The notes beneath the pieces were generated by a model, which saw only the letters and a program-made list of their open reading frames with translations, searched no databases and was not told where the DNA came from. Source: Candidatus Latescibacterota bacterium (GTDB taxonomy: Bacteria > Latescibacterota > UBA2968). Taken from it: 64,000 nucleotides of DNA. Both the position numbers and the translations under genes were made by a program. The stretch spans positions 256,001 through 320,000 of the forward strand of contig OZ220741.1 in assembly GCA_965116885.1 (NCBI GenBank), written 5' to 3'. Positions 1 through 24,733 of the stretch are shown in pieces (position 1 is the first letter of the stretch; every line of letters begins with the position of its first letter).

Positions 1-1999
1 TGGTGCTGAACCAGCGTTGGTCCTTTCTGTATTGCCTGTCGATATCGTCTTTGAGAAATCGGTATTCTAATTTGGTTCGAGGGACAAGTTGTTGCCATTC
101 TTTTTCGAGAATGGCAATGGTCCCGGGGATATTGTCAGGAGAAATTTTGACGAGTAAATAGCCATCTATCTCAGGGTCTAAAATAATTGCAGCAGGTGCG
201 ACGGTATGATGCAAAGACCGAAAATGAAAATCTTTGACAACGCCAATAACCGTTGGAGACCCCTTGCTTTTCCAGCTTGAGAGCGTCTGTCCTGCACCAT
301 TTTTCCAGCCTAAATGTTTGACAAACGCCTCATTGACAATGAGCGCGTTGGTTTTGTCTCTTGTCCTTGAGAAATCCCTCCCTTCAAGCAACTTGAGATT
401 CATCATTTTGACAAAATCATATCCTACATAGATTAATTCTGTTGTAAAACGCTCTCCTTCAATGTCAAAAGTGCGGCGACTCCGAGTCCTATTGCTCAAA
501 ACATGTCCAACCGTGGTAGTACCAATAATCTGAGGGTAGGTAGCAATTTTGTCTTTATAAGCATCTATTGAAGTGGGCGAAATTTTTTGTAGATCAAAAG
601 TTGAAATTACTACGACGTTATCTATATAGAGTCCCAGATCCTTATTTTTCAGGAAGTCGATTTGCCTTGTCATCGTGAATGCACCAATGAGTAGCATCGT
701 CGAAAGTGCAAATTGAAGAATGAGCAGTATCCGGATTAAAATTGTAGGTTTTAAGGATGCTATTCTCGCACTCAAAATTTCAATGGTTTGAAAACGCGAT
801 AATACCAGGGCAGGATAAAAGCCAGAGACCATCCCTATGGTTAGGGTCAGAGCCAATACATATAGCACGGTGGTTAGATCAACGTATTTTAAGGCAAGCT
901 CTTTGCCCATCAGCGCGTTAAACATTGGCAACATCAATTCGACGAGCGCGAGGCCCAATATCAGAGCAAGGAAGGATAGAATAATGGATTCACCGAGATA
1001 TTGGCCGATTAATTGCTGCCGATGCGCGCCAAATAACTTGCGAATGCCGACTTCTTTGCTCCGCGTTGAAGAGATACCTATGGTCAGGACGGAAAAATTG
1101 GTGCCTGCTACGAGGATGATGATCAATGCAATGCCAGTAAGTACATAAGAATAGATGGGATTGCTGACTGGCTCAGGTCCTCGGACACTTTGATCGAAGT
1201 GTATCTCTTTGAGCGGTTGTAAGAAGAATTGGAGTGGCCTGGGATACCCGGCCTGGTCTGCCAGGGTCTTGCCAACCTCTGGGAGGCGATCTTTTACTTG
1301 CTGAAGCGCCATTGCTTTGGGGAGCATGACAAAAGTGCTGATGCCGCCTGTAAAATGCCATGTGTCGGGATGTGCTTCCGAGGCAGCTTCAAAGGGAAGA
1401 AGGCCATCGAATCGCAGACTGGAATTTTTGGGAATATCTTTTAGAATACCGGAAACAATATGGTCTTTGCCCTTTGGTGCCGGACTTCCACCTATAGACA
1501 TCCACTGTGTTGGACGTAAGGTAATCATCTGTCCTATGGGATTGGTGTTGGGAAATAATTTCTGAGCCGTTTCTTGTGTGATGAGAATTGATTGTACGTC
1601 ATGTAGCGCGGCAGTGCCACTAACAAGCGGAAATGAAAAGATGTCTAAAAATTCGGGGTCAACATATCTTAATTCAAGTGAAAAGGAATTTTCTCCTTTT
1701 ACGGCGTTTCCCCGACTGCGATAGGCGCGAACGATTTTTAAGCCAGCAAATTCATTTGCAAAAGCAGGTCCCAAAGGCCCCGGTGTGATGGCATTGATGC
1801 GGTTTCTGGATTTCAGGCAAATTCTGTAGATATGATCCATATTTTCGTGAAATCGGTCGTAGGTCCATTCGTTATGCACGAATAATAGTCCGAGAATGCC
1901 AAATGCCAGCGCGATGGATACACCAATGATATTGATCAAGGTAGTTAATTTATGTTTGAAAAGGCTCCTGAGTGCCAGCACGATGTAATTACGGATCAT
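1..1999 (-). CDS. ABC transporter permease, MacB/FtsX family (3' end runs off window)
   Basis: Not in ORF track (no stop in window). ATG at 1999 after GGAGG; translates MIRNYIVLALRSLFKHKLTTLINIIGVSIALAFGILGLLFVHNEWTYDRFHEN; same frame gives RSKEVGIRKLFGA near 1050 and FLKDDIDRQYRKDQRW near base 30. Confidence 0.9.
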   Translation of the reverse strand, partial: MIRNYIVLALRSLFKHKLTTLINIIGVSIALAFGILGLLFVHNEWTYDRFHENMDHIYRICLKSRNRINAITPGPLGPAFANEFAGLKIVRAYRSRGNAVKGENSFSLELRYVDPEFLDIFSFPLVSGTAALHDVQSILITQETAQKLFPNTNPIGQMITLRPTQWMSIGGSPAPKGKDHIVSGILKDIPKNSSLRFDGLLPFEAASEAHPDTWHFTGGISTFVMLPKAMALQQVKDRLPEVGKTLADQAGYPRPLQFFLQPLKEIHFDQSVRGPEPVSNPIYSYVLTGIALIIILVAGTNFSVLTIGISSTRSKEVGIRKLFGAHRQQLIGQYLGESIILSFLALILGLALVELMLPMFNALMGKELALKYVDLTTVLYVLALTLTIGMVSGFYPALVLSRFQTIEILSARIASLKPTILIRILLILQFALSTMLLIGAFTMTRQIDFLKNKDLGLYIDNVVVISTFDLQKISPTSIDAYKDKIATYPQIIGTTTVGHVLSNRTRSRRTFDIEGERFTTELIYVGYDFVKMMNLKLLEGRDFSRTRDKTNALIVNEAFVKHLGWKNGAGQTLSSWKSKGSPTVIGVVKDFHFRSLHHTVAPAAIILDPEIDGYLLVKISPDNIPGTIAILEKEWQQLVPRTKLEYRFLKDDIDRQYRKDQRWFST

Positions 2000-2263
2000 A
2001 AATATGCCTCCGGTTGATGGGGTTCCCTGCCAGAAAGCAGAGAACCCTTTATAGATCATCCGAAGATAATGCTATTCACATTTAGAATAGGCAAGCAATA
2101 TTCTCCTTTGAAAGAGAAGTCCGGTGCTTCAGATCGCCAGGGTAATGAATCAATTGATGTCCACTGGATGAGCGCAGATTGTGGTTTATCAATAGAAAAG
2201 ACCAAGGCTATGCACACAATGCCAAATGCACAACCTGTCATCCGAGGCCATTTCAATAAGAAT

Positions 2264-2467
2264 TCAAACAATCTCATAAACTTGCCCTTCAGAAAACGCC
2301 AGTGCCAAGCGGATAGAACTCGAACCACTTCCAAATTCGAGAATCCTTTCTACTGTGGGCATCTGAAGAAACGTGGTTGCGATTCTCTCAAATGCTGTCT
2401 CACCAATGCTCCAGTCTGTGTCCAGATGAAGCCGATCCGGTATTTTGAAGTCTAAAATTTTATGCAT
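2264..2467 (-). pseudogene. N-terminal fragment of a class I SAM-dependent methyltransferase
   Basis: 67 aa with SAM motif I-like RILEFGSGSSSIRLA, then a stop shortly after; far too short for the fold. Confidence 0.55.
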
Positions 2468-2484
2468 TCCTTACTTCTCTTGAT

Positions 2485-2718
2485 TTAATAGCCGTCATGT
2501 GCAAATACGTACACATACCAGGAGGCCTGTTCTGGTCCTATCCCATCAGGAGGAGCTTCACAACCCCAAATTTCAGCGAGTCGAGCCTCTTCTTCCTGGG
2601 CTTCTCTTTTAGAATTATAATGACCAACAATTCTCCAGTTTCTGAATGAGCGGTATCTGGATCGCCAATGTCGCTTTCGCTCGTCGGGATCCATAGTAAT
2701 GCCAACTCTACAGGCCAT
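2485..2718 (-). CDS. small hypothetical protein, GIY-YIG-like N-terminal motif
   Basis: 77 aa ORF starting 17 nt after the rSAM stop; CRVGITMDPDERKRHW and AQEEEARL resemble GIY-YIG elements. Confidence 0.65.
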   Translation of the reverse strand: MACRVGITMDPDERKRHWRSRYRSFRNWRIVGHYNSKREAQEEEARLAEIWGCEAPPDGIGPEQASWYVYVFAHDGY

Positions 2719-2735
2719 CTTTATCTCTTTATGAT

Positions 2736-4172
2736 TTACGAGGTTATTTCCAGACTATATCGTCGCTGCAACAAAGACGCATCGGCTTCTGCAATCTCCA
2801 TACACATTTCCATCGCCAATTCATAGCGATAGCGCGTCTGTTCACAAGAAACTGGATTTGGATACATCGGATCACCCGTTGTCGTCCGCGCCTCCCAAAG
2901 ACACCCGCCACCACACAGGTTGCGCGCCCAGCACGTCTTGCACTCAGGACGATTATTCACATTGAACTGCGCGTCAAAATGCTGCTGCTTTGCGCGGTCA
3001 ATACCCGCAAACACATTCCCCATCTTAAACTCGGGTGCATCGGCCAAACTCGAACAAAAATAAATCGACCCATCTGCTGCAATCGCCAAATACTGCTTAC
3101 CACCGAGGCATCCATGACAAGATTTCTTGCGCGTCAAAAGTTTTTGAATCCGTGGATCAAACTCTTCATCTTCACCCTTTTCGCCACTTAAAATAGCTTT
3201 GAGCGCACGCTGGCTCCGCTTGTAAATTTGCTGCTTCAAAACAGGTATGTGTTCTTCCCCAATCGCATAAGGCGCATCGGGGGAGACAACAGCCAGGTCA
3301 ACAAGCGCGTTATCAGTACCCAGAGAACGCAACGCATCGGCAATCTGATCTTCATCCATATCATAAGCTGTCATAACAGCCTGCAAATACACGCGCTCAG
3401 GTGCCTCAGCAGTCAGTTTCTTTACATTCTTTGCCACAACATCATAAGTCCCAGAACCATTGTGAAACTTGCGAATGCGATCCTGTGTTTTACGCCCCCC
3501 ATCCAGGCTGACCTTAATCTGAAACTTTTCATCAACCAAAAACTGCTTCATCTCGTCGGTCAACAGCGTGCCATTGGTCACAATGCCAAAACCAACCTGC
3601 ACACCCAATCGCGCTCCCAGGGATTTGGCAAACGGGACAAGCTCTCTCATCAATGGAAAATTCAGAAGCGGTTCCCCGCCAAAAAAATCAATCTGGCACC
3701 GCCCAAACCCCTGAGCTTCAGTGACAATCCAGCGTATGGCTTGCTCGGCAACTTTGGGTTGCATCAGCATGGCCTTACCGCCATAATCCCCGCCATGAGC
3801 AAAGCAATAAGCACATTGAATATTGCACGTATGGGAAACGTGCAAGGACACCTGCAAACGGTCTGTCTGCGACACGCCACAGGCAGCTACCCCTTCTGTT
3901 GTCGGTACATTAGCTACTACAGGTAGTGCACCATCCGAAATCAAACCCACCTGCGCCAATTCGCCGATAGCCTGAGCAATTTCTTCTGCCTCGTATTGAT
4001 CAACCAATACTTGAACAACCTGTGAAGCCGACAAGCCCTCACAACACTCTAAAATCGCCTCGAAAAGGGTATCCAGTTCAAAAAACAGACCTGTCTCAAC
4101 CTGATAGACAATCGGCTGTTTTTGCTCCTCGGTTTCAAAAAGATGCATGTCACATTTCTGAATGCACAGCAT
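2736..4172 (-). CDS. radical SAM/SPASM peptide maturase with N-terminal RRE (CteB/PapB/QhpD-like)
   Basis: HVSHTCNIQCAYCFAHGGDYGG (CxxxCxxC), FFGGEPLLNF, SPASM CLGG..GSIYFC..CKTCWARNLCGGGC..C, ~80 aa PqqD-like N-terminus; ATG 4172 after GAGGAG. Confidence 0.93.
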   Translation of the reverse strand: MLCIQKCDMHLFETEEQKQPIVYQVETGLFFELDTLFEAILECCEGLSASQVVQVLVDQYEAEEIAQAIGELAQVGLISDGALPVVANVPTTEGVAACGVSQTDRLQVSLHVSHTCNIQCAYCFAHGGDYGGKAMLMQPKVAEQAIRWIVTEAQGFGRCQIDFFGGEPLLNFPLMRELVPFAKSLGARLGVQVGFGIVTNGTLLTDEMKQFLVDEKFQIKVSLDGGRKTQDRIRKFHNGSGTYDVVAKNVKKLTAEAPERVYLQAVMTAYDMDEDQIADALRSLGTDNALVDLAVVSPDAPYAIGEEHIPVLKQQIYKRSQRALKAILSGEKGEDEEFDPRIQKLLTRKKSCHGCLGGKQYLAIAADGSIYFCSSLADAPEFKMGNVFAGIDRAKQQHFDAQFNVNNRPECKTCWARNLCGGGCLWEARTTTGDPMYPNPVSCEQTRYRYELAMEMCMEIAEADASLLQRRYSLEITS

Positions 4173-4196
4173 AGCACACACTCCTCAAAACCGAAA

Positions 4197-4391
4197 TCAC
4201 TTATCCTGATCATCAGCTTGATCAAAATCGTCCCAATCGTCATCGTCATCGGGAAAGGGTAAGAGAGGAACGCAGAAGACACCGGGGTAACAGCTACCAA
4301 TTTCAAAACTCCTCGTAGCCTGATACATAAGAATACCACCTTCTTCATTCATCGTTCCATTGATCAAGGTCAGCTTGCTCTGGGTCACCAT
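4197..4391 (-). CDS. putative RiPP precursor peptide (64 aa)
   Basis: AAGGAGAGAAAT-ATG; MVTQSKLTLINGTMNEEGGILMYQATRSFEIGSCYPGVFCVPLLPFPDDDDDWDDFDQADDQDK; 24 nt upstream of rSAM start, downstream of a sigma54 promoter. Confidence 0.8.
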   Translation of the reverse strand: MVTQSKLTLINGTMNEEGGILMYQATRSFEIGSCYPGVFCVPLLPFPDDDDDWDDFDQADDQDK

Positions 4392-4447
4392 ATTTCTCTC
4401 CTTAAACAATGCGAAAATCTAATGCCGTTACTGTCCGCCTATCATAC

Positions 4448-4463
4448 TGCAAGTTCCGTGCCA
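4448..4463 (-). promoter_or_regulatory. sigma54 -24/-12 promoter for precursor-rSAM operon
   Basis: Minus strand TGGCACGGAACTTGCA = TGGCAC-N5-TTGCW, 56 nt upstream of the precursor ATG. Confidence 0.88.
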
Positions 4464-4480
4464 AAAATCGTTTCAAAATA

Positions 4481-4511
4481 AAAAAAAGCACTTGAAAATT
4501 CTCAAGTGCTT
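4481..4511 (-). terminator. intrinsic terminator after kinase-bEBP gene
   Basis: Minus strand AAGCACTTGAGAATTTTCAAGTGCTT followed by a T-run. Confidence 0.6.
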
Positions 4512-4554
4512 GAAAAACAAAGAGATAAAATTTAAAAATTATTTTTATTACAAA

Positions 4555-4690
4555 TGCGACATTCAGATACAAATGTATCTAATATGATACAGTCTAACCA
4601 TTCATTTAAATATAATATGCATAACTGATTGATTTATATAAATATAAACGAAATGTAACCCAAATGATATTACTGTTACAAAATGATACA
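4555..4690. promoter_or_regulatory. putative enhancer (UAS) pairs and IHF site
   Basis: TGCGACATTCAGATACA 4555, TGTATCTAATATGATACA 4574, TGTAACCCAAATGATAT 4654, TGTTACAAAATGATACA 4674; minus-strand AATCAATCAGTTA at 4622-4634 fits IHF consensus WATCAANNNNTTR. Confidence 0.6.
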
Positions 4691-4702
4691 CCCGTTCAAC
4701 AT

Positions 4703-7700
4703 CTATCTCAACCCCAAACGATTGATCTTTCTATATAAGCTAATGCGTGCCACCCCCAGTTCTTCGGCCGCATGCGTAATATTACCCTCGCATCTCTCGA
4801 GTGCGTTCCGAATCAACCGTCTCTCATACTCTTGCATAAGATCTTGTAAACGCCCCTGGTATTCAGTAGAGACATCTGACACTTTGTGCCCAACAGCTTC
4901 TGAAAACAAATCGGGTGTAATTGCGCCATCTTCTTCTGCCAAGGCCACAGCAAGCCGAATCTCATTCTCCAACTCGCGCACATTACCAGGCCAATTGTAA
5001 CTTGTGAGCGCCCTGATCGCACCCACTGTCAGCCCTCCAACAGACTTGTTTGCCTCTTCCTTTGCCCGAATGAGCAAATGTTCGGTCAATACTGGTACAT
5101 CTTCAATATGTTCTCGCAAAGGCGGCATATCGATCTGAATCACGTGCAACCGGTAATACAAATCTTCACGGAAAGAACCATTTTCAACTTCTTTTTTTAA
5201 ATCTCGATTGGTCGCTGCAATAATGCGTACATTCACTGTGCGATCCTCTGTTTCTCCCACGCGCCGGATCTCGCCTTCTTGTAATACCCGCAACAAACTC
5301 CTTTGTAACTCTGGCGGGGCATCTCCGATTTCATCTAAAAAAACCGTGCCGCCATCAGCCGCTTCAAAAATCCCCTTATGATCTTCATTGGCACCTGTAA
5401 ACGCGCCTTTTTTGTGCCCAAACAACTCACTCTGCAATAACTCTGGTGAAAGTGCGGCACAATTTTCCGACAAAAATCGCCGGTCTTTGCGTGTGCTATT
5501 GTAGTGTATGGCACGCGCAGCCAATTCTTTACCCGTACCTGTCTCGCCCTGCACAAGCACGGGAATATCACTCTTTGCAGCGCGTTCTATAAGTTGATAG
5601 ATCGCCTGCATCGCATCGCTTTGTCCGACCATGTCGCCAAGCTGGTGCCGTCTTTCGACCTCTTGCTGCAAATATTGTGCCTTCTCTTCCAATTGTTCGT
5701 ACATCTTCGCATTAGCCAGTGCCACCCCCACCAGATTTGCAAATGCCTGTAAAAACGTCTGATCGGCTTCAGAAAATGCGTTGCTGATACCGCGATGATC
5801 CACATATAGCGCACCCATCACACCTTCCTTAACATGAAACAGAGGCACGCACAATACAGACCGAATGTCGTAGTCTATCACACTCTGATAGCGATTGAGC
5901 CTTTCGTCTGACTGTGCATCAAAGCTCAAAACGGGTTTATTGGTTTCAATAACCCCACGAATAATACCCCGACTCAGTGTTTCTGCATCATCTGCTTCTA
6001 CATTGTGGTGGCGCAGGGCATCAACCACAAAGCCTTTTTGGGTCTTATTTTTAATCGCAACAACTACCCGCTCTGCTGGATAAACAACCAACAAATTACC
6101 CAAAGTTCGATCCAATAACACCTTGACATCGCGCTCTGTTGTCAATTCCTGGCTCACATAGTAAAGCAAGCGCAAGCGATCAACAGACAATGTATCAACT
6201 GAAATCTCAGAACTAAGCGCGGCATCATCGCCGCGAGAAGATTTGCCCAATTGATCTAATAACACCTGTGTTTTCTCGAAAAAATAGGACATTTCCATTT
6301 CTCCAAACGCCTGTTTTGCCACTTCGAGATGTGCCTTAGCTCTTGGTACATCATCGCGCTTGAGATAAAACTCTCCTGCCATCAGCAATGCACGCGCCCA
6401 GTGATCGCCTTTGGATTCTCTTCGGCATTCAATCGCCTGCTCAAAAGCCTCTACTGCCTCAGCAGTCCGCCCTGCCTGGGCGAAAGCAACACCAATACCA
6501 GAATAAACCAGGGGCAATATGCCCGTGTACATACCCGATGTTTGTTGCGTACCTTCACTGGCTTTTTCTGCCCATTCAAGTGCAGTTTCCACATCTCCTA
6601 TTCTCACAGCAGCCGTTGCCGCAATCGCATAAGCGCGATAGACATAATCTTTTCGCGGTATTTCCAAAAAACGCTCTGCCGAGGTCTCAGCATATTCCAA
6701 TGCCTCGGCAAAATCACCGTGTTCCAGTGCCAATTCCCCCAAATAAAGAAAACTCACTGCCTCACCATACACAAGTCCTTGCTTCTGCCACTCACCAATG
6801 ACTTCATGGCAAACGGCTTCCGCACGGTTGAGGTCGCCCAGATAAAAATAAACTCTTGTAAGTAAATTAAGTGCCCAAAGGCGATAGTGCTCCAGACCAA
6901 GTTGCCTAAAGGTCTTTACAGCAGTTTCCAAATACCCTTTAGCTATCTCAAATTGAAATCCCACCAATGCAACCATACCTTCTCGCCCTTGTATAAAAAC
7001 TTCATTTTGTGAATCTCCCAGACTACGGCGTTTCTCTATTTCCCGACGCATATACGCAATCGCTTCTTCGTGCTGTCCAGACACATCGCACAACTGAGCC
7101 AAACTACCCAACGCCTGAATTTCGCCCTCGACATCACCCAGACCACTATAAAGTTGTAATGCCTCCAGCATATATTCTTTTGCAATTTCTCCATGTTGAA
7201 GTACAATGTGAATACCACCTTCATTCCACAAAATACGCGCCTTCAAATCGTTCCGGTCATCGGGCAATAACGCCTTTGCCTCGTCTAAAAGTTCCAGTGC
7301 TCTATTATGCTGGCTACAATTGCGCAGTGCATCTGCATAATCGCACAAAAATTCGATCACATCTGCCCGCGATTCAAAAGCGTCATCCGCTGTCCAGTCC
7401 CGTACAGCCTCAAATCGCATCAATGCTTGGCGACAGGCGTGTTGTTCCAGTGCTTTTTTACCTGATAGGCGCATATATTTCACAGCCTTATCTCGTTCTT
7501 TTGCCGCCGCAAAATGATCCGCCAATTCTTCTGTCAATTCTTCTGCATCTTCCGTCTCTTCCAGAGCATTGCCAATTTCACGATGCAACAGACGCCGCCG
7601 CACAGCTTGCATACGATTGTAAATTGCACGACGACACAAACCCTGTGCAAAGCGATACCGCTCTTCATCGCCATAAGTAATTAACAGCCCTTCTGCAATC

Positions 7701-9508
7701 AGGCTATCAAGCACATCCAGCAGTTCCAACTCATCGCCGCGCCAAACCGCAGCCAATAATTCAAAAGAAAAATCACTCAAAAAAACACAGGCGTATTCCA
7801 TTACCTGGCGTTGCACCGCAGAAAGGGCAGTTATGCGCCTGTACAAAACCTCTGAAATGTCATTGGATAACAGGGTCTCGGGAAACTCTCCCCACTGCCA
7901 ATTGCCGTACACATTTTGCCGAACCACATCGGCATGCACCAACGTCCTCACAGCCTCCACGACAAACAGGGATTGTCCACCTGTTTCTTGGAACAGAGTT
8001 TGCAATGCATCAGAAGGTATGGACCGCTCCCCCAACATCGACGCCGCTAAATACCCCACTTCTTCTTGAGGTAGATTTTCCAACTGAATATGAGTCGCCT
8101 CGGCAAATTCATTGCCGTGTATAAACTTTTCAACTTCCTCTGGAAGCAGCTCCAGGTTAGACCATCGGCAAGTCAGGCATAACAAAAATGGACAGGGTTC
8201 TGGATCGCGCAACACATACTGCAAAAATTCCAGGGTCAATTCATCAAGCCATTGAACATCTTCCAAACACAACACAATGGGCTGTTTCTGACGCAGACGC
8301 TTTAATAACTGCAACCAGCGCTCCATAACAGAAAACTTGTCCGTCTCTAATAAATCGGGCAATCCCGCCATCAAATCCGTCGTCTTTACCTGCTGAAAAG
8401 CATCGATCAACGCACCGTATATTTGTCCACCCTCTTCCTGCCCTGCACCTTTCAAACACAGAAAGTCATGGATCAGCGCATCGCCCAAGAGTTCTTCAAT
8501 CAGTCTCGTTTTACCCACTCCAGACTCACCGGAGATCAAAACTACGCGCTGTTTGCCAGCATGTACATCCTGCAAGATCGCACCCAGTATCTTCATTTCA
8601 GATTCCCGCCCAACAAATTGCGGCCGCATAACTTTTCTATGCACATCGCGCTGCTCTTCATTCGGAAGCACCAACTCCGATGGTAAGGCACGCACCAGTT
8701 CCTCTGCCGACTGGTAACGATCAACACGCTCCTTTGCCAGCAACTTCAACACAATTTGTTTCATCTGTTCGGGAACCGCGATATTGACCTGGCCTATTGG
8801 TAGCGGTGACTCTCGAATATGCTTCATAATAACAGATATTGGGTTTTGTCCAGAAAAGGGCGGTGTGTCCGTGAGGACCTCGTATAAAATTACGCCCAAT
8901 GAGTACAGATCTGACCGATGATCCACCCACAAACCCTTACCTTGCTCTGGCGACATATACTCCGCGGTACCAATCGTTGCGCCTGTCTGCGTAATGGAGG
9001 CACTATGTAGATGCCTGAATTTCGCCAACCCCAGATCCAGGATCGTGGTCTCAATCCCCTCTTTTGTCTCCACAACCATAATATTGGATGGCTTGAGATC
9101 GCGATGCACCGCACCCTGCGCGTGGATATAAGCCAACCCCTCGGCAATTTGTTGTATCAAATCAAAAAAGTGAGAAGTTCGAAATTGCCCTAAAAATGCC
9201 TGATCGGCAATTATTTTTTCCAATGTCTTTCCGGGCAAATATTCCATTGTAAAATAGGGACGCTCCTCGGCAAAGCCCCAGGTGTATGTGCGAACCAGAC
9301 GCGGGTGCTGGAATCGGTTCAACACCTGAAATTCTCTGTGAAAACGGCGGCGCACAGCCTGCTCATCCATCATTTCATTCAAAATTTTGAGCGCACACTC
9401 CTCGTCTTGCTCCAGGTCCAGAACCCGATAGACTTCACCCATGCCCCCGGATCCCAGATGTGTCTGGATTTGATATTTGTTGTCGAGAATGGTACCGATT
9501 TCAAACAT
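4703..9508 (-). CDS. Ser/Thr kinase - STAND/AAA ATPase - TPR - GAF - sigma54 activator - Fis HTH fusion (1601 aa)
   Basis: GSGGMGEVY, ALK, HRDLKPSN, DLG, GTAEYMSPE; FVGRESE..GESGVGKT..LEDVQWLD; helical repeats; GAF RSVLCVPL..GALYVD; GETGTGKE, ELFGHKKGAFTGA, FLDEIG, WPGNVREL, C-terminal HTH; likely start MFEIG at 9508. Confidence 0.95.
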   Translation of the reverse strand: MFEIGTILDNKYQIQTHLGSGGMGEVYRVLDLEQDEECALKILNEMMDEQAVRRRFHREFQVLNRFQHPRLVRTYTWGFAEERPYFTMEYLPGKTLEKIIADQAFLGQFRTSHFFDLIQQIAEGLAYIHAQGAVHRDLKPSNIMVVETKEGIETTILDLGLAKFRHLHSASITQTGATIGTAEYMSPEQGKGLWVDHRSDLYSLGVILYEVLTDTPPFSGQNPISVIMKHIRESPLPIGQVNIAVPEQMKQIVLKLLAKERVDRYQSAEELVRALPSELVLPNEEQRDVHRKVMRPQFVGRESEMKILGAILQDVHAGKQRVVLISGESGVGKTRLIEELLGDALIHDFLCLKGAGQEEGGQIYGALIDAFQQVKTTDLMAGLPDLLETDKFSVMERWLQLLKRLRQKQPIVLCLEDVQWLDELTLEFLQYVLRDPEPCPFLLCLTCRWSNLELLPEEVEKFIHGNEFAEATHIQLENLPQEEVGYLAASMLGERSIPSDALQTLFQETGGQSLFVVEAVRTLVHADVVRQNVYGNWQWGEFPETLLSNDISEVLYRRITALSAVQRQVMEYACVFLSDFSFELLAAVWRGDELELLDVLDSLIAEGLLITYGDEERYRFAQGLCRRAIYNRMQAVRRRLLHREIGNALEETEDAEELTEELADHFAAAKERDKAVKYMRLSGKKALEQHACRQALMRFEAVRDWTADDAFESRADVIEFLCDYADALRNCSQHNRALELLDEAKALLPDDRNDLKARILWNEGGIHIVLQHGEIAKEYMLEALQLYSGLGDVEGEIQALGSLAQLCDVSGQHEEAIAYMRREIEKRRSLGDSQNEVFIQGREGMVALVGFQFEIAKGYLETAVKTFRQLGLEHYRLWALNLLTRVYFYLGDLNRAEAVCHEVIGEWQKQGLVYGEAVSFLYLGELALEHGDFAEALEYAETSAERFLEIPRKDYVYRAYAIAATAAVRIGDVETALEWAEKASEGTQQTSGMYTGILPLVYSGIGVAFAQAGRTAEAVEAFEQAIECRRESKGDHWARALLMAGEFYLKRDDVPRAKAHLEVAKQAFGEMEMSYFFEKTQVLLDQLGKSSRGDDAALSSEISVDTLSVDRLRLLYYVSQELTTERDVKVLLDRTLGNLLVVYPAERVVVAIKNKTQKGFVVDALRHHNVEADDAETLSRGIIRGVIETNKPVLSFDAQSDERLNRYQSVIDYDIRSVLCVPLFHVKEGVMGALYVDHRGISNAFSEADQTFLQAFANLVGVALANAKMYEQLEEKAQYLQQEVERRHQLGDMVGQSDAMQAIYQLIERAAKSDIPVLVQGETGTGKELAARAIHYNSTRKDRRFLSENCAALSPELLQSELFGHKKGAFTGANEDHKGIFEAADGGTVFLDEIGDAPPELQRSLLRVLQEGEIRRVGETEDRTVNVRIIAATNRDLKKEVENGSFREDLYYRLHVIQIDMPPLREHIEDVPVLTEHLLIRAKEEANKSVGGLTVGAIRALTSYNWPGNVRELENEIRLAVALAEEDGAITPDLFSEAVGHKVSDVSTEYQGRLQDLMQEYERRLIRNALERCEGNITHAAEELGVARISLYRKINRLGLR

Positions 9509-9661
9509 AAAAGCAACCACCGTCAGAAGCGGTGTACAACTGGTCAATTTCCAGACCAGTTCATCAGGATATGCAAGATTAAATGCATGACAAGATATAG
9601 CGTTGTTGCGTAAGGTCAAATATATATTTGGGGAATCACCGTCGAAAACATTAGCAGTATA

Positions 9662-9700
9662 AACCAAAAAACCACGCCCAAAGGACGTGGTTTTTTGGTT
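9662..9700. terminator. intrinsic terminator after GWxTD gene (symmetrical)
   Basis: AACCAAAAAACCACG-cccaaagga-CGTGGTTTTTTGGTT inverted repeat. Confidence 0.7.
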
Positions 9701-9770
9701 ATAGACTTGACTCGTTTTAGTCGATAACAGAAATAAATCCACTGGTCGAGACAAAAGTCGAGAAGGTCAT

Positions 9771-12251
9771 TTACTCTACAATCCGAAAATAGACGTATTT
9801 TCTATCCGTCTGCTCAGTTCGCTTGTCCTTCGCCAATACCGTCAATTGATAAATCCCTTCAGGCACCTGGTTCACATCGATCTGCAAATACGTGAAATCA
9901 TCTTCTCGATTGCCTTCGTAATTTGCCGTCACTGTGCGCGTCAAATCGCCATCTTTTGATCGCTCGATCTTCAAGCCCTCAGCGGCGATATGATGAACCT
10001 GCCCACCACTCGTATAAACCCTCGTCTCGCCCCATATATCGCTATCTGCGAATACGCTACTGCCCTCCTCACTATCCGCTGACCAACTGGCCTGCAACTC
10101 CTCGGCAACTATATGATCTATTTGTCCACTCTGCAGATCAATCTCAGTTCTACCCATCGTCTCAATCAGATCTTGAGACGCGAATAATGTGGGCGATAGC
10201 GTATCTATCTCTGGCTTGCCAATGGTGTAGGAGATCTCATACTGCGTGCTGCCAAAATTGTCGCGTTTGAGATCATACAGTTCCAGATAGATAAAGACCG
10301 GTTCAGATGGTGAAAATGTGCGGACGGGATTGGGTGTGATGTGCAGATCATCACGGCTTTCTGGCAATGCTTCCTTCGCTTGAATATCACTGCCGACCAA
10401 CAGATCACTCAGATGAAAGGTCTCATCGCCATAGACATACTGCTTCTCATCGCGTGCTATACCAATGAACCCAGATGTCTGATCCATAAATTCTACTGAA
10501 AAATGATAGCGTCCCTGGGGTACAGACACCTGGCGCGAGACCAACAGGTGATCGTTGCGATGCTTCGCGGCTGCGTTTTGTGCAGGTTTCTGTGGCGGTA
10601 ATGCGAAGGTCCTGGATAGGCGATCATTATACATATCATTCCACTGTTCATCAAAGAAGAAGACGCCATCCCAAAAACTCACCTTGCCCGTTTCAAAATT
10701 TTCTGCTAATCGGTCTTTCGGAATCATATAGCTGAGTTCGACCCGCACGCTGTCTCGTTCTTCAAAGGCGGCGATCTGATGGGGAAGGGTGTATTTGCGA
10801 TCGAGGTAAGGATCGACAAACCGTTGCTCTGTTTTTTTGAATACATTATATGAGGCTTCCCGAAGTGTACGAGGCACAGGAGCAAAGGCTCGTCTCAGCG
10901 TAAATTTAGGATCCCTATCCGCGAGCACCCCAAACTCAGGAAGCTTAGCCCCGAAGTCGTATTGACGGAAAACACTTGCTCCTACAGGTAGGCGCTGGTT
11001 GACACCATACCATGAACCGCCGCAAAAATACCAGCTATCATCCGTAGTGCCACAAAATTTGAACTGAAAGTCTTCGTAATACCAGAATTCCATCATTGCA
11101 GCATCCAGGACCTCTTCAGAATCCCATGTCCCTTTATTGGTTGTCACGCGACGTCTATATCTTCCAAATTTGATATAAGTCTTCCCCATATCCGTCTGCC
11201 AGCCTTCAACATCATCTGAAAATCGCCTGAACCGCAAATTCGAATACGCCATACGACCAAAGTGCTCCATCTTTCTTTCATTAAAATCAGATAAATAGAG
11301 TGGGTCCTGGTGCTTCCAAAACATCTCGCGTTCCAATAGCGCATCTATCGTCTGCGTCGTATCGCGGGGTGCATGATCTTCTTCGGGCACAAGCAGGTCG
11401 ATAGATTCGAGTAACTCGCGTTCTTCAATACTTATCAAGTCAAGGGCGCGTTGATAGTATTCATGCGATTCATCGAATTCGCCAATCTGATAGGCAGCAA
11501 GGCCACAGAATAATAGTGCATTTTTGTCATCTGGGTTGTGCGCGTACAAGTCTTGCATCAAGGTTTGAAACGCATACCAGTCCTCATCTTCAAAGTAGAG
11601 TATGCCCAAAAAATAATAAGGTTGCTGGTTAGCTCCATCCAATTGGATGCTTTTTCGCAGGACCTGCACTGCTTCTTGTTTGGATTCCTCGGCAAAGGTC
11701 TTGAAATCTTTTATCCTATGATTCATTGCCATTTTATCGAAATCTCTGAATATAAGGGATCTCATGTCCATCTCTTGTGATGGCGCTCTTCTATCTTTCT
11801 GTGACAGGAAATCATACACCCAAAACATACCTATACTATTGAGGACATCCGTATTGTTGGGATGCTTTTTCATCACGTTCTTGAATTGGTTCAATGCCCG
11901 AAATCGAAAGCTCTGTGCCCACCAGATTTTCCCGCGTGTCAGCCGATATTCAGCATTGTCGGGATCACTTGCGATTGCCTGCTGTATCATCCGCATTGCA
12001 CGCTGTCGGCCATTCACGCTGTGGTCCAACAGATGCAGTTTGGCCAATTCGTTGTATGCAGGGGCATAATTTCTGTCTTTGGAAATAATCTCCTCGAAAG
12101 CTTTGATGCTTTCCTTCCGACTCACCTGACCAACTTGCTCCAGTGCATCCTGAAACAGCGCATCTATTGTGGTTTCGCCTCTGGACAAGCCAGAACCAAA
12201 GATGCAAAACAACAGTGTAAAACCCGTATAAATTACTGATCCCGCTTTCAT
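9771..12251 (-). CDS. secreted TPR + GWxTD domain protein (826 aa)
   Basis: Signal peptide-like MKAGSVIYTGFTLLFCIFGSGLSRG after GGAG; TPR helices; FWKHQDP..NERKMEHFGRMAYSNLRF..EGWQTDMGKTYIKFG; beta-rich C-terminus. Confidence 0.9.
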   Translation of the reverse strand: MKAGSVIYTGFTLLFCIFGSGLSRGETTIDALFQDALEQVGQVSRKESIKAFEEIISKDRNYAPAYNELAKLHLLDHSVNGRQRAMRMIQQAIASDPDNAEYRLTRGKIWWAQSFRFRALNQFKNVMKKHPNNTDVLNSIGMFWVYDFLSQKDRRAPSQEMDMRSLIFRDFDKMAMNHRIKDFKTFAEESKQEAVQVLRKSIQLDGANQQPYYFLGILYFEDEDWYAFQTLMQDLYAHNPDDKNALLFCGLAAYQIGEFDESHEYYQRALDLISIEERELLESIDLLVPEEDHAPRDTTQTIDALLEREMFWKHQDPLYLSDFNERKMEHFGRMAYSNLRFRRFSDDVEGWQTDMGKTYIKFGRYRRRVTTNKGTWDSEEVLDAAMMEFWYYEDFQFKFCGTTDDSWYFCGGSWYGVNQRLPVGASVFRQYDFGAKLPEFGVLADRDPKFTLRRAFAPVPRTLREASYNVFKKTEQRFVDPYLDRKYTLPHQIAAFEERDSVRVELSYMIPKDRLAENFETGKVSFWDGVFFFDEQWNDMYNDRLSRTFALPPQKPAQNAAAKHRNDHLLVSRQVSVPQGRYHFSVEFMDQTSGFIGIARDEKQYVYGDETFHLSDLLVGSDIQAKEALPESRDDLHITPNPVRTFSPSEPVFIYLELYDLKRDNFGSTQYEISYTIGKPEIDTLSPTLFASQDLIETMGRTEIDLQSGQIDHIVAEELQASWSADSEEGSSVFADSDIWGETRVYTSGGQVHHIAAEGLKIERSKDGDLTRTVTANYEGNREDDFTYLQIDVNQVPEGIYQLTVLAKDKRTEQTDRKYVYFRIVE

Positions 12252-12351
12252 GTTTTTCTCCGTATCTACCGTGAACCCTGCGAAATGTGATAAAAGCAAT
12301 CGAAATTGCAACTTGAGAGATCACCGCGGCTTTGTGTACGCAAAAATATAA

Positions 12352-12367
12352 AGCAATTTCCGTGCCA
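12352..12367 (-). promoter_or_regulatory. sigma54 -24/-12 promoter for GWxTD gene
   Basis: Minus strand TGGCACGGAAATTGCT, preceded by TTT as in the 4448 copy. Confidence 0.88.
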
Positions 12368-12386
12368 AAATATTCTTCTCTATATT

Positions 12387-12470
12387 TTACAATTAGTTAC
12401 AAAAATTTGTGCCATGAACGCAGTTTAATAAGTGTCCGATTTTGATACAGTGGTGTCCGAAAATGAACAC
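12387..12470. promoter_or_regulatory. putative IHF-like site and tandem UAS
   Basis: TTACAATTAGTTA at 12387 (imperfect IHF); TGTCCGATTTTGATACA 12433 and TGTCCGAAAATGAACAC 12454, 21-bp period. Confidence 0.55.
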
Positions 12471-12474
12471 TTAA

Positions 12475-12512
12475 TAAAAAAATAGGCACATTGTTTTATT
12501 TCAATGTGCCTA
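12475..12512 (-). terminator. intrinsic terminator after TRAP permease
   Basis: TAGGCACATTG / CAATGTGCCTA 11-bp stem with T-run on minus strand. Confidence 0.7.
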
Positions 12513-12595
12513 CTGTATCTTCCTTAGAACCATCGTTTACCACAACGAATGCTCAAATGTGCTGGGCTTGCTTATAAAGTCGCGCAACATCAATT

Positions 12596-14491
12596 CTAAT
12601 TGAGATGGATAGACCTGGCATGTTTTTGCACCAACATCAAAACGAGAAAAATCGCCGCCCCAACAGCATGACATACCAGCAAAGGCCAAAGCAACAGCAC
12701 CGCTGCCGCCAGGAATAAGACGCGGTATAGAACACCCAGCGACACCATGTGAAAACCCTCAGAAGCCGCTGCAAAAGACAGCAGCCCCAGAAGCGTAGCT
12801 ATCACAGTCTCAATAACGCGCCAGGTCTCCCCTTCAAAAAGGATAGGCGTATAGCAAAAAAGCAAGGGAATAAAATAAATACCCTTGGCAATGCGCCACG
12901 ACTCAAAACCCGTACGCAGCGGATTCGCCCCCGCAATACCCGCGGCGGAATACGCAGCCAGACAAACCGGCGGCGTGACATTGGCATCTTGCGAATACCA
13001 AAAAATCAGCAAATGCGCCGCAATCAGACTCACCCCCAGATTGGTCAGCGCGGGCGCAGCCAGCACTGCCAGCACGATATAAGAAGCCGTCACCGGCAAG
13101 CCCATGCCCAAAATCAGAGACGCAACGGCAATGAGCACAACAGTAATAAGCACACTGCTTCCGGCAATCGCCGAAATAAGCAAAGAAAATTTGATCCCAA
13201 CGCCCACCATCAGCACCACACCCACAATAATACCAGCGCACAAAAGAATAATACCCGTTGTAATCATATTGTGAGCACCCAGCGCAAGGGCATCGACAAT
13301 ATCTCGAATATTCATGCGCGTGTTCTTATTCAACCAACTCGTCACAACAATACTTGCAGTTCCCGTTGCCGCTGCAAACGTGGGTGTAAAACCGTAGATC
13401 AGTGTGCCCACCAGCACCCCAATAGGAATCGCAAAATGCCAGCCTTCGCGGATCGTATCGCGGATATCCGGAAGTTCCGAAGCAGGCAAAGGCACAATCC
13501 CCCGTTTTCGCGCGCGAAAATGAATAAAAAAAGTAACACTCAAAAAATAGATAAGCGCGGGGATAAAGGACACGGCGACAATAGTCAGATAGGGAATTTG
13601 CGTCCACTGACTCATAATAAACGCGCCCGCGCCCATAATCGGTGGCATGAGTTGACCGCCCGTAGATGCCGCCGCCTCGACCGCACCTGAAAACGTAGGC
13701 GAAAAACCCGTGCGCTTCATCATCGGGATCGTGAGCGAACCCGACCCCACCGTATTCGCCACAGCACTCCCCGAAATTGAACCGAGCATACCACTGGCAA
13801 AAACCGCCATCTTTGCCGGTCCCCCCACCGTGCGCCCGAGCAACGCGAGCGCCAGACGAATCATAAAATCGCCCGCACCCGAACGCAGGAGAAACGCGCC
13901 AAAAAGCACAAAAAGCGCGACAAAAGTAGATGAAATCGTCGCAATCGTACCAAAAATACCATCGGGTGCGAAATACATGCGATACAACAAGCGCGGCAAT
14001 GACACACCGGGAAACGCCCATATACCCGAAATATATTGCCCCCAAAAAAGCGCGTAAGTGAGAAATACGAGCGCGAGCAACGGAATAAAAAAACCAGTCG
14101 TACGACGGGTAATCTCGAGCAAAAGGAGAATCGCAATACCCGCAAAAACGAGATCAGCCGTATTCGGCACCTCATTGCGGGCGTGCAACGCATCCTCAAA
14201 AAACACGAGATAAAGGGCGACGGCAACAGATAGGATGGCGAAAAAATAATCGAGAATCAGCGTGCGCGAGGCATAGCGCGAAGAAATGGGATAAAGCAGA
14301 TATCCCAAAAAAAGAATGAAGGCATAATGGGTGGCATTGCGCTGCAATTCGGGCAAAACGCCCAGCGTATTGCTCCACAGGTGAAACAGAGACAGACACA
14401 CCCCCACAACAACGACCAGCACCTGATGCCTGCCAGTAAGCACGCGATGGGGCGTACTCACTTCGCCGCCCTGTTCAAATTCCGAATTCAA
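12596..14491 (-). CDS. TRAP transporter fused permease (TAXI-type DctQM)
   Basis: Polytopic; GGPAKMAVFASG..GSAVAN, EAAASTGGQLMPPIMGAGAFIM, LGMGLPVTASYI, VTPPVCLAAY. Confidence 0.95.
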   Translation of the reverse strand: MNSEFEQGGEVSTPHRVLTGRHQVLVVVVGVCLSLFHLWSNTLGVLPELQRNATHYAFILFLGYLLYPISSRYASRTLILDYFFAILSVAVALYLVFFEDALHARNEVPNTADLVFAGIAILLLLEITRRTTGFFIPLLALVFLTYALFWGQYISGIWAFPGVSLPRLLYRMYFAPDGIFGTIATISSTFVALFVLFGAFLLRSGAGDFMIRLALALLGRTVGGPAKMAVFASGMLGSISGSAVANTVGSGSLTIPMMKRTGFSPTFSGAVEAAASTGGQLMPPIMGAGAFIMSQWTQIPYLTIVAVSFIPALIYFLSVTFFIHFRARKRGIVPLPASELPDIRDTIREGWHFAIPIGVLVGTLIYGFTPTFAAATGTASIVVTSWLNKNTRMNIRDIVDALALGAHNMITTGIILLCAGIIVGVVLMVGVGIKFSLLISAIAGSSVLITVVLIAVASLILGMGLPVTASYIVLAVLAAPALTNLGVSLIAAHLLIFWYSQDANVTPPVCLAAYSAAGIAGANPLRTGFESWRIAKGIYFIPLLFCYTPILFEGETWRVIETVIATLLGLLSFAAASEGFHMVSLGVLYRVLFLAAAVLLLWPLLVCHAVGAAIFLVLMLVQKHARSIHLN

Positions 14492-22360: not shown

Positions 22361-24733
22361 TTATTCACATCGCAATATATCAACGGGATTGGTACGCGCT
22401 GTTTTCCAGGCGAGGCATCCTGCTGTTAAAACAGCAATAAAAAGCAGAACTGCTATACTCAAAAGAAACGGCCAAACCGCGAGATCAATCTGATAGGCAA
22501 AATTCTGCAACCAGTCCCGCATCAAAAAATATCCAACCGGACACGCAATTGTGCCCGCGAACACAGCGAGCCTGGCAAAATCCTGGCTAATCAAAACGAC
22601 GAGATGGGATACCGGAGCACCCAGCACCTTGCGAATACCAATTTCTCGGGCACGCTGTTCAGCGGCAAAAGCCGCCAGACCCGCCAGACCCAGACAGGCC
22701 AGCACAATGGCGACAATTGCAGACCGCGTAAAAATATGCCCCTGGCGTTGTTCCCGTCGGTATTTGGAATCGATATAATCGTCGATAAAAAAGAATTCAA
22801 AAGGCCGCGTCGGGATAAAATGCATCCAGGTCTCTTCGACAAAAGCCATCGTCTTCCGAATACGGTCGGGTTTAATCTTGAGATGCAAGTACTTCAAATC
22901 CGCACCCGCCGCAGACAAAACCACAGGCCCCAGAGGCTCTCTGAGAGAACGCACATGAAAATCTCCCATCACGCCAATAACCTGCGCGGGTCTCTCCCCA
23001 ATCATCAGCATACACCCCAGAGGATCTGCCCAACCAAATCGCTTTACAGCAGTCTCATTTACCACCACCTGCATCGCGGCCGCGTCCTCTGTCACCTGCT
23101 CCGCATAAGCCTGTGAAAAACTTCGACCCACGAGCATCGGAATATTGTAACACGTAAGAAAATTCTCATTCGCCCGAAAAACGCGCACTTCAACCTCTCG
23201 ATCAGGCCTTTCAACATCCGACGCAAAACGTCGGCTCGGCCAACTGTGTCCGGGCAGATCCAAGCTCGTACCCGCTACAATAATATCGGGATGCTGAAGA
23301 AATCGCTGTTTGACCGCATTATATTGACCATTCAAGTGGATCTGCTCCGCATCCGGACCAAAAATTTTCACCACGACAATCTCATCGCGATCAAAACCCA
23401 GGTATTTGCCCTGCACCAGATCCATCTGCTGATAGACCACGAGCGTAGATGCAATGAGAATAGCAGACACCGCAAATTGCACCACCACGAGACCTTTGCG
23501 CAGCCAGAGATCTCCTGGAAGCCTGTTGCGCAACCCCTTCAGCGCATCGACGGGCTGCTGCGCCGAAAGATAAAAAGCGGGATAACTTCCCGAAACCAGA
23601 GCAGTAACCAGCGCAATGCCCCCAATCCACAAAACATGATCAGAAATATTAAAAACAAGTGGTTGATCCATCAGACCTGAAAATTGCGGCAAAAGCAACA
23701 CCGTCAATCCAAAAGATATGGGCAACGCAACCCCCGTAAACAACACAGACTCGCACAAAAACTGCCCCATAATATGTTGCCGGCGCGCCCCCACAACCAT
23801 TCGCAGACCAATTTCGCGGGCGCGAATAGCTGAACGCGCAGTAGCCAGATTCATAAAATTGATACAGGCGATGAGCAAAATACCCACGCCCAGAACAGAC
23901 AGGGGATAGAGATCGCGAACATCCCGATACGGCATCCCTCCATCACCCGTAAAACCCGCCAGATCAATCCTGGAATACAGATGGATGCGCGGCAGAGCCT
24001 GGAGATGATAAGTCGCCTCCGATTCAGAGGGAAAGCGGACAGCAAGCGCATGCTCAAGAGCCTCAACATCTGCATCGGGACGCAAACGCACGTAAATCGG
24101 CGCAGCGCGTATCGCCCAGTTATCGGACGCAAAAAAAGTCACACTATCAAACTCCAACCGCGTATTGGTGGGGCGATCTTTCATCACGGCAACAACCGTA
24201 AATACCTGCTGAAATGTCTCGCGCTGCACCTCAACGGTGCGACCAATGGGGTCTGCATTACCATAGAGCTTATCGGCAACGCCCTGCGTTAAAACAATGG
24301 ACGCATCTCGGCGTTTGAGCGCAGTAGTATCCCCTCGAATAATATCCAGACCAAAGAAATCCACAACATCTCCATCAACCGGACAAAGGCGCTGTTGAAA
24401 CAATCGGTCCTCCGCGCGAAACCAGGACGTAATGCGGCGGAACTGAACAACCGCCTCGACCTCGGGATATTCATCGCGCAAATGCACGGCAATCTCTGAA
24501 GAAAGAGCGCCGCGCCATTCGACTTGCCCCCGCGCATCTATATCCCTCTTCATAATTCGATAAACCCGGTCAGCGTGGGGTCGAAAGGCATCGTAGCTCA
24601 TCTCGTAGCGTATAGAAAGCATAATGAGCACAGCACACGTCAATCCAATAGCCAGACTACTCAGGCTAATAATCGCATAGAACTTGTGACGCATCGCGTT
24701 GCGAATCGCAACTGTCAGAAAATTGTAGAACAT
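22361..24733 (-). CDS. ABC transporter permease, MacB/FtsX family
   Basis: MFYNFLTVAIRN, IACINFMNLATARS..REIGLRMVVGA, QRAREIGIRKVLGA, NPVDILRCE. Confidence 0.93.
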   Translation of the reverse strand: MFYNFLTVAIRNAMRHKFYAIISLSSLAIGLTCAVLIMLSIRYEMSYDAFRPHADRVYRIMKRDIDARGQVEWRGALSSEIAVHLRDEYPEVEAVVQFRRITSWFRAEDRLFQQRLCPVDGDVVDFFGLDIIRGDTTALKRRDASIVLTQGVADKLYGNADPIGRTVEVQRETFQQVFTVVAVMKDRPTNTRLEFDSVTFFASDNWAIRAAPIYVRLRPDADVEALEHALAVRFPSESEATYHLQALPRIHLYSRIDLAGFTGDGGMPYRDVRDLYPLSVLGVGILLIACINFMNLATARSAIRAREIGLRMVVGARRQHIMGQFLCESVLFTGVALPISFGLTVLLLPQFSGLMDQPLVFNISDHVLWIGGIALVTALVSGSYPAFYLSAQQPVDALKGLRNRLPGDLWLRKGLVVVQFAVSAILIASTLVVYQQMDLVQGKYLGFDRDEIVVVKIFGPDAEQIHLNGQYNAVKQRFLQHPDIIVAGTSLDLPGHSWPSRRFASDVERPDREVEVRVFRANENFLTCYNIPMLVGRSFSQAYAEQVTEDAAAMQVVVNETAVKRFGWADPLGCMLMIGERPAQVIGVMGDFHVRSLREPLGPVVLSAAGADLKYLHLKIKPDRIRKTMAFVEETWMHFIPTRPFEFFFIDDYIDSKYRREQRQGHIFTRSAIVAIVLACLGLAGLAAFAAEQRAREIGIRKVLGAPVSHLVVLISQDFARLAVFAGTIACPVGYFLMRDWLQNFAYQIDLAVWPFLLSIAVLLFIAVLTAGCLAWKTARTNPVDILRCE

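Follow-up and report, generated by a model that had tools for sequence, protein, structure and literature searches.

Within a 64,000-nucleotide stretch of contig OZ220741.1 from a Candidatus Latescibacterota bacterium (hereafter the window), a small open reading frame (ORF) for a 64-residue peptide lies directly upstream of a gene for a radical S-adenosylmethionine (SAM) enzyme with a SPASM domain. The small ORF is preceded by a perfect match to a sigma-54 promoter and, further upstream, by the gene for a giant sigma-54 activator (Table 1). We propose that these genes probably form a ranthipeptide-like cassette for a peptide that is ribosomally synthesized and modified after translation (RiPP), under sigma-54 control, in which the peptide would acquire one crosslink from its Cys34, most likely a thioether. 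The peptide most likely represents a previously undescribed family from the Latescibacterota that fits none of the named ones.

The precursor gene, its family and its promoter

The small ORF is a real gene and not a chance ORF, because a word-indexed search (E <= 4.3e-12) gave it homologues in 85 clusters, formed at 90% identity and almost none of them named, its family profile matches the ORF immediately 5′ of the radical SAM gene in 34 loci, a Shine-Dalgarno-like motif lies within the final 16 nt before its ATG in 33/33 loci, and its ratio of non-synonymous to synonymous substitution rates (dN/dS; pooled Nei-Gojobori estimates, 33 loci) is 0.34 over the whole precursor. The preliminary description of the locus had made its proposal depend on such a conserved small ORF beside radical SAM homologues, and one is present in these 34 loci. 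The letters of the peptide are also exactly as first described, with KLTLING in the leader (residues 6-12), C34, C40, VPLLPFP (41-47), D48 and 11 Asp in a 17-residue tail.

The precursor has no match in NCBIfam or Pfam, and a search of the Protein Data Bank (PDB) with the profile of the 85 homologues (E <= 10) gave nothing convincing (best SgdX2, E 0.018). An exhaustive search with the precursor profile through 1.84 billion representatives returned 14 at E <= 0.001, among which no distant precursor family appeared; several of the eight that were inspected resemble frame-shifted reads of the same gene. The family is narrow.

Across the 85 aligned precursors, M1, L7, L9, N11, G12, C34, P42, P45, F46, P47, D50 and D54 are invariant and D49, D51 and D52 nearly so, while Pro at position 36 (62/85) makes a C-x-P motif with the conserved Cys. 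Exactly one Cys is present in 72/85 homologues. C40 occurs in 1/85, the window copy alone, and is an idiosyncrasy of that copy; the two-Cys precursor first put forward does not hold as a family trait. Constraint is unevenly distributed along the peptide, with a dN/dS of 0.28 in the leader, 0.45 in residues 21-33, 0.95 in the six-residue loop after the Cys, 0.12 in VPxLPFP and 0.22 in the acidic tail, compared to 0.11 for the radical SAM gene. Since the synonymous rate in the loop is near saturation, its value should be read as about neutral or mixed, and not as proven positive selection.

Related cassettes are found in other genera, at loci where the radical SAM protein is 43-54% identical to that of the window. 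At these loci, too, a small ORF lies upstream, and its peptide has a leader of the form x-L-x-x-I/V-N-G/A and a single conserved Cys that is followed by a Pro-rich stretch; a sigma-54-like motif is kept in five distant loci. When the precursors are aligned by eye on their Cys, they share a spacer of six residues after it, then a position that is aliphatic or aromatic, and Pro at +9 and +11. The poly-Asp tail is absent from these more distant precursors, so it is no general requirement of the chemistry and is specific to the genus. Relocation of the acidic tail to the C-terminus of the radical SAM protein in the tail-less subfamilies was considered and rejected, since the proteins of 11 loci and 50 proteins of the clade show no systematic tail at that end; one relative's enzyme does end in an acidic stretch.

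The window holds 2 sigma-54 consensus matches where 0.09 would be expected. In 33/33 related loci the precursor ATG is preceded, at a distance of 58-80 nt, by GGCAC-N5-TTGC, and 16 of these loci match the full consensus. A homologue of the activator gene immediately precedes the precursor gene, in the same orientation, in 32/34 loci, the remaining 2 contigs ending within 700 nt, and its sigma-54 interaction domain (PF00158, E 1.9e-74) indicates that an enhancer-binding protein adjoins the cassette. The genome also has rpoN (Sigma54_DBD, 203.8 bits). Both the promoter motif and the activator linkage are newly recognised for this cassette; the preliminary description had noted neither of them, nor that the family is multi-copy and hypervariable. 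The terminator-like hairpin between the activator gene and the promoter is visible in upstream sequences of related loci as well; Rfam gave no match for positions 1-13000 of the window. Four RNA libraries from three studies contain contigs with radical SAM relatives 85-99% alike and little cover over the peptide gene, but such contigs cannot show transcription or its starts, and DNA carry-over is possible.

The radical SAM/SPASM enzyme

Pfam matched the enzyme to PF04055 (4.3e-15), PF13186 (2e-4) and, as a weak signal for a PqqD-like RiPP recognition element (RRE), PF05402 (0.004). Its top five NCBIfam matches are all thioether or ranthipeptide-type maturases, or presumed so: the SCIFF maturase TIGR03974 (254.6 bits, curated cut-off 425), the nif11 radical SAM family TIGR04064 (251.7 bits, cut-off 518.7), QhpD TIGR03906 (246.9 bits, cut-off 453), 'not_ScfB' (227.9 bits, cut-off 855) and PapB NF047865 (223.2 bits, cut-off 340). 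The anaerobic sulfatase maturase (anSME) family TIGR03942 follows at 112.9 bits (1.8e-32; cut-off 349.45). Among solved structures, CteB is the closest relative (5wgg, E 5.8e-58, over query residues 23-457), and an anSME structure, 4k36, also matches (E 1.7e-17). These data support the ranthipeptide-type maturase of the preliminary description, and place the enzyme in the RRE-bearing branch of CteB, QhpD and PapB.

Both the CX3CX2C motif (C119/C123/C126) and seven SPASM cysteines (358, 376, 414, 417, 423, 427 and 446) are invariant in 67 aligned homologues. The homologues form a tight clade (38-93% identity), followed by a gap to the SCIFF maturases at about 29-32%; the few clade proteins that have names are annotated as radical SAM or SPASM and come from metagenome-assembled genomes (MAGs) of Latescibacteria or Gemmatimonadota. 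A metagenome scan with the clade alignment, covering 2 of 64 parts, returned, among the matches listed, generic SCIFF-type maturases (27-34% identical) and no further clade members. The pocket positions in the window enzyme are F127, F167, V201, S225, S377 and S378. Position 377 is Ser in 49/49 clade rows and His in 16/18 outgroup rows, while at position 378 the clade rows have Ser or Ala (48/49) and the outgroup rows Gln or Arg (16/18). The clade therefore has a pocket signature of its own, in which Cys-Ser-Ser/Ala replaces the Cys-His-Gln of the CteB-type loop.

Among known systems, CteB/CteA (thermocellin) and the SCIFF peptides resemble the cassette in the whole span from the RRE through the SPASM domain, in the three-cluster cysteine set, in a precursor directly upstream and in a leader modelled on the RRE strand. 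They differ in the pocket loop and in the low identity of the maturases, in the precursor, which has six Cys in about 45 residues in SCIFF and one conserved Cys in the window family, and in the wiring of the window cassette to sigma-54 and a giant activator. The six-Cys SCIFF pattern and the CX3D pattern are both absent from the precursor, as noted at the outset. The nif11-like systems are set apart by a window precursor with no Pfam match and an enzyme under the TIGR04064 cut-off. That no characterised family fits is thus still the case, for the enzyme and for the precursor alike.

We also modelled the complex of precursor and enzyme, with both chains given as alignments and with three controls. 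The pair scored 0.81, compared to 0.01 for the best control; the docking mark is reached by 116/157 solved complexes and by 2/215 mismatched pairs. The runs share at least 56% of contacts, with a predicted local distance difference test (pLDDT) value of at least 47 for the partner. In the model, peptide residues 5-13 of the leader pair with enzyme residues 31-37, the RRE strand. Peptide residues 20-31 and C34 contact enzyme residues that include the SPASM cysteines 358, 376 and 427, and C34 itself lies in an interface with enzyme residues 358, 360, 364, 376, 378 and 427.

The predicted crosslink and its alternatives

We propose the following course of events. The giant sensor-regulator would activate the sigma-54 promoter that drives the peptide-maturase operon, as the anatomy of the locus suggests. 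On the model and on homology to CteB, the KLTLING leader would dock as a beta-strand on the N-terminal RRE of the maturase, and Cys34, the only conserved cysteine, would thereby come to lie beside the SPASM domain's auxiliary-cluster cysteines. The enzyme would then abstract a hydrogen from a nearby residue and join the Cys34 sulfur to that carbon, the reaction expected of its family, to yield a single thioether macrocycle. A precedent for one Cys sufficing in a radical SAM thioether RiPP is the enteropeptin KgrA, a single-Cys sactipeptide (accessible text of PMC10288494), with the difference that KgrA, compared here by description only, has a maturase of another family and an alpha-carbon link.

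Two positions for the acceptor merit discussion. Tentatively, it may be a residue of the VPxLPFP-Asp segment, in which case the ring would display the variable six-residue loop. Somewhat more doubtful is a Glu, Thr or Ser at -3 or -4 relative to the Cys, giving a small ring similar to that of NxxcB/NxxcA, where a single thioether joins one Cys to the residue three positions before it (accessible text of PMC8326336). Most window-related subfamilies do have one of these residues there: Glu in 73/85 of the main family and in 3/5 of the next subfamily, and, among the aligned loci, Thr or Ser in the three that are furthest removed (L062, L064 and L067). In 12/85 main-family homologues, Glu30 gives way to Lys, Gly or Asn. 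The NxxcB system differs in its Asn, which the window family does not have at that position, in not being among the best NCBIfam matches listed, and in that the window link is hypothetical. Another carbon is an unlikely acceptor, and another chemistry, or none, accounts for what is left.

The preliminary description had put forward a specific thioether, from C40 to D48, as plausible, since C40-x6-P-D48 mirrors a Cys-Asp link in QhpC. Position 48 is a gap in 51 of the 85 homologues, Asp in 26 and Asn in 8, and with C40 in the window copy alone this link cannot be the chemistry of the family. The likeness to QhpC also found no support, as the PDB search with the precursor profile gave no match named as an amine dehydrogenase subunit; QhpC moreover has several Cys. 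The absence of qhpA and qhpB, by comparison, could be extended from the window to the genome, which is 98.4% complete and in which neither QH_alpha nor QH_beta was found above cut-off (no match for TIGR03908; best score for TIGR03907 31.4 bits, cut-off 223.2). A QhpC-like thioether is not restricted to this form: in a relaxed version, Cys34 would be joined to an Asp of the tail. The enzyme's score against QhpD, a SPASM enzyme of the same branch, the Asp-rich peptide, and the conservation of D50 and D54 in 85/85 homologues, with D49, D51 and D52 close behind, all speak for it, as does the use of Asp as acceptor in the products of QhpD, which forms Cys-Asp and Cys-Glu thioethers, and of PapB, the maturase of PapA (freyrasin; accessible text of PMC8326336). 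PapB is likewise a ranthipeptide maturase, but the window enzyme is under its cut-off, as it is under that of QhpD, and the window precursor is without repeated C-x3-D/E units. A ring closed between Cys34 and Asp49..54 would take in 15-20 residues and so exceed in size those mentioned in the accessible text of PMC8326336, and related cassettes have no poly-Asp tail. The relaxed form is therefore possible for the window's genus and cannot be general, and we consider a QhpC-like Cys-to-Asp link, taken in both forms, improbable.

We also consider it unlikely that the enzyme carries out a different radical SAM reaction, such as conversion of Cys34 to formylglycine in the manner of anSME, a carbon-carbon or ether crosslink via the conserved Trp, Phe or Pro, or epimerisation. 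The matches to TIGR03942 and 4k36, the C-x-P motif created by Pro36, the clade-specific loop after an auxiliary-cluster Cys and the chemical diversity of the SPASM superfamily (accessible text of PMC10288494) would fit such a reaction, but the five best families, thioether-forming or presumed so, score 223-255 bits against 113 for anSME, and a single strictly invariant Cys is what would be predicted for a sulfur donor. Furthermore, the subfamily with radical SAM proteins 49-54% identical to that of the window has C-x-W-P in place of C-x-P. The sulfatase motif is C-x-P-x-R, and its Arg is absent here.

The last alternative is that the small acidic protein is no substrate at all, acting instead as a regulator, chaperone or anti-activator of the sensor-regulator, with the radical SAM enzyme acting elsewhere. 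The peptide is always accompanied by the activator, its C-terminal two-thirds are conserved like a folded or binding module, and neither a protease nor an exporter is conserved nearby. The tight pairing with the radical SAM gene across a short intergenic gap in 34 loci, the invariant Cys, the hypervariable segment adjoining it, as in RiPP cores, and the modelled pairing of leader and RRE strand, allowing for a possible likeness to a solved complex, make this explanation highly improbable.

Several points weigh against the RiPP-type cassette with one Cys34-derived thioether that we prefer. The thioether is a prediction from the family to which the enzyme belongs, and the enzyme is under every NCBIfam curated cut-off. 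As Cys-Ser-Ser/Ala replaces the Cys-His-Gln of the CteB-type loop, the reaction could differ. No candidate acceptor, upstream or downstream of the Cys, is conserved over all subfamilies, the invariance of Asp50 and Asp54 being confined to the genus-level family. In the docking model, the fold of the peptide is uncertain (pLDDT 47-49) and residues 35-64 are unplaced. A CteB-peptide complex has been solved, and the docking pass may therefore reflect likeness or memory and not binding by the window copy; the early comparison of the leader to an RRE-binding motif stands insofar as the model places it on the RRE strand, with carry-over from that complex as a possible source. Use of the precursor promoter is a prediction, the RNA-library contigs covering only radical SAM relatives. 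Finally, no conserved protease or exporter was found in the cassette neighbourhoods, so that a released product is a candidate only. It had been said that the window has no protease gene, and indeed no dedicated peptidase was seen in its 37 further ORFs (E <= 1e-15); since 14 of these have no family match, that absence is not strict.

Neighbouring genes, distribution and significance

The features of the locus are collected in Table 1. The ATG at 4172 is the likely true start of the radical SAM gene, lying 8 nt after GAGGAG and 22 nt past the precursor stop, and the gaps that flank the cassette genes are short (17-22 nt).

Table 1. Features of the cassette and adjoining genes, with positions in the window
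Feature	Position	Strand	Remarks
Precursor peptide gene, 64 aa	4197..4391	minus	ATG at 4391; leader with KLTLING, Cys34, loop 35-40, VPxLPFP 41-47, acidic tail 48-64
Shine-Dalgarno sequence AAGGAGAG	4396..4403	minus	strong; 4 nt 5′ of precursor ATG
Sigma-54 (-24/-12) promoter TGGCACGGAACTTGCA	4448..4463	minus	57 nt 5′ of precursor ATG; perfect match
Terminator-like hairpin and T-run	4486..4511	minus	separates activator gene from sigma-54 promoter
Radical SAM/SPASM maturase with N-terminal RRE	2736..4181	minus	481 aa as listed; probable ATG at 4172
Sigma-54 activator, 1683 aa	4703..9754	minus	Pkinase (Ser/Thr kinase), AAA_16 (STAND), TPR, GAF, Sigma54_activat, HTH_8 (Pfam)
77-aa ORF, accessory	2485..2718	minus	begins 17 nt past radical SAM stop
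Methyltransf_24-like gene remnant	2264..2467	minus	first 66 of about 302 residues; 17 nt past 77-aa ORF
TPR/GWxTD-like gene, 846 aa	9771..12311	minus	precedes activator gene
Second perfect sigma-54 match TGGCACGGAAATTGCT	12352..12367	minus	41 nt upstream of 846-aa TPR/GWxTD-like gene

The three genes of the cassette, for a giant sensor-regulator, a precursor of 58-64 aa and a radical SAM/SPASM maturase, occur together in one Latescibacterota lineage. The window genome has three cassettes, whose radical SAM proteins are 93-94% identical and whose peptides are 55-61% identical over the aligned part. The activators of the two other cassettes are paralogues about 81% identical; when they were compared for a concentration of divergence in the sensor region, the three activators had, past a variable N-terminus, 63-95% identity per 60-residue segment, lowest at about 892-1010 and with no sharp contrast. 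Neither of the two other cassettes has the 846-aa TPR/GWxTD-like gene, which carries a sigma-54 motif of its own. Across the phylum, 29/168 genomes have a match to the radical SAM protein at E <= 1e-40. The window's genus accounts for matches in 15/20 genomes, 14 of which have two or three and the fifteenth a single partial one. A scan of species representatives yielded 38 loci, 32 of them with a radical SAM protein 89-92% identical to that of the window, and all but two carry Latescibacterota titles. Relatives are also present in runs labelled as sponge and coral metagenomes.

The genes downstream of the radical SAM gene are more variable. About 15/36 other loci searched are followed by a complete or almost complete Methyltransf_24-like gene (Pfam E 0.037; Atlas score 0.96), which is a stump in the window and is represented by fragments alone in two further loci; this accessory gene has been reduced to a remnant in the window copy. 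The 77-aa ORF was found in 10/36 other loci searched (69-95% identical). It has no match in Pfam or NCBIfam and falls in unnamed small-protein clusters from several phyla, with a weak T5orf172 lead; in RNA-library contigs of relatives without it, the sequence joins across its place. Behind other cassettes lie genes for a short sigma-54 activator and for a PHP-UvrD helicase. The leaves of the radical SAM tree do not sort by downstream gene context, possibly owing to gene conversion or low resolution.

In other genera, a second radical SAM/SPASM gene, about 24-32% identical to the first, lies directly downstream of it in L058 (3093-4418), L064, L065, L067 and two further places, pointing to a pathway variant with two enzymes. 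Another distant cassette is followed at about 1.4 kb, after a gene that is thioredoxin-like by eye, by a 76-aa ORF (L033, 6893-7123) that is rich in both Cys and Asp and has a signal-like N-terminus. One cassette appears to have been destroyed: in a Latescibacterota genome (L034, 1922-3424 and 4010-4547), the C-terminal third of the radical SAM gene stands alone beside a 500-aa ORF that looks transposase-like by eye. The window also has, in a span of 35 kb, three duplicated FtsX/MacB-type permease genes of the ADOP family (2-2059, 22364-24733 and 31700-34144, all minus), the first of which adjoins the cassette but was not found beside other cassettes. The 1181-aa protein encoded at 47856-51398 (minus) matches the anti-phage sirtuin Dsr1 in its N-terminal part (NF041818, E 1.6e-86, 291 bits; cut-off 1400), and its gene is possibly one for defence.

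In open-access papers and preprints, we found no description of the peptide family or of a sigma-54-wired radical SAM peptide cassette. The antiSMASH label 'ranthipeptide' is applied to sponge-associated Latescibacterota MAGs in PMC12993501 and appears among the cluster types in a survey of sponge bacteria, PMC11832590; the peptide is not described in the accessible parts of either. The systems compared above were taken from the accessible parts of PMC8326336, PMC10288494 and PMC13692751. Work by Chen et al. in 2020 is said to deal with SCIFF peptides and quorum sensing.

A more speculative idea, to which we give little weight, is that the cassette is a self-contained module for peptide signalling or recognition. 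The TPR/STAND part of the cassette's own activator would sense the crosslinked peptide, in which a nearly neutral six-residue loop is set among frozen segments, sigma-54 would mediate autoinduction, and the two or three paralogous cassettes of a genome would act as separate 'pherotypes'. A bolder variant would treat the invariant Pro-rich motif and the acidic tail as a docking motif of eukaryotic type, directed at the animals that host these symbionts.

Ranthipeptide-type enzymes are common, yet only a few of the peptides they make have been identified, and much of what these do is still to be learned. The family described here would offer a substrate pared down to a single cysteine and a single expected crosslink, and its 85 clusters amount to a natural library of loop variants. 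The dedicated sigma-54 activator of each cassette, with its kinase and STAND sensor domains, provides a built-in regulatory hypothesis. Given the distinct active-site signature of the maturase clade, Cys-Ser-Ser, the identity of the linkage would tell whether a clade-specific pocket alters the acceptor or the chemistry.

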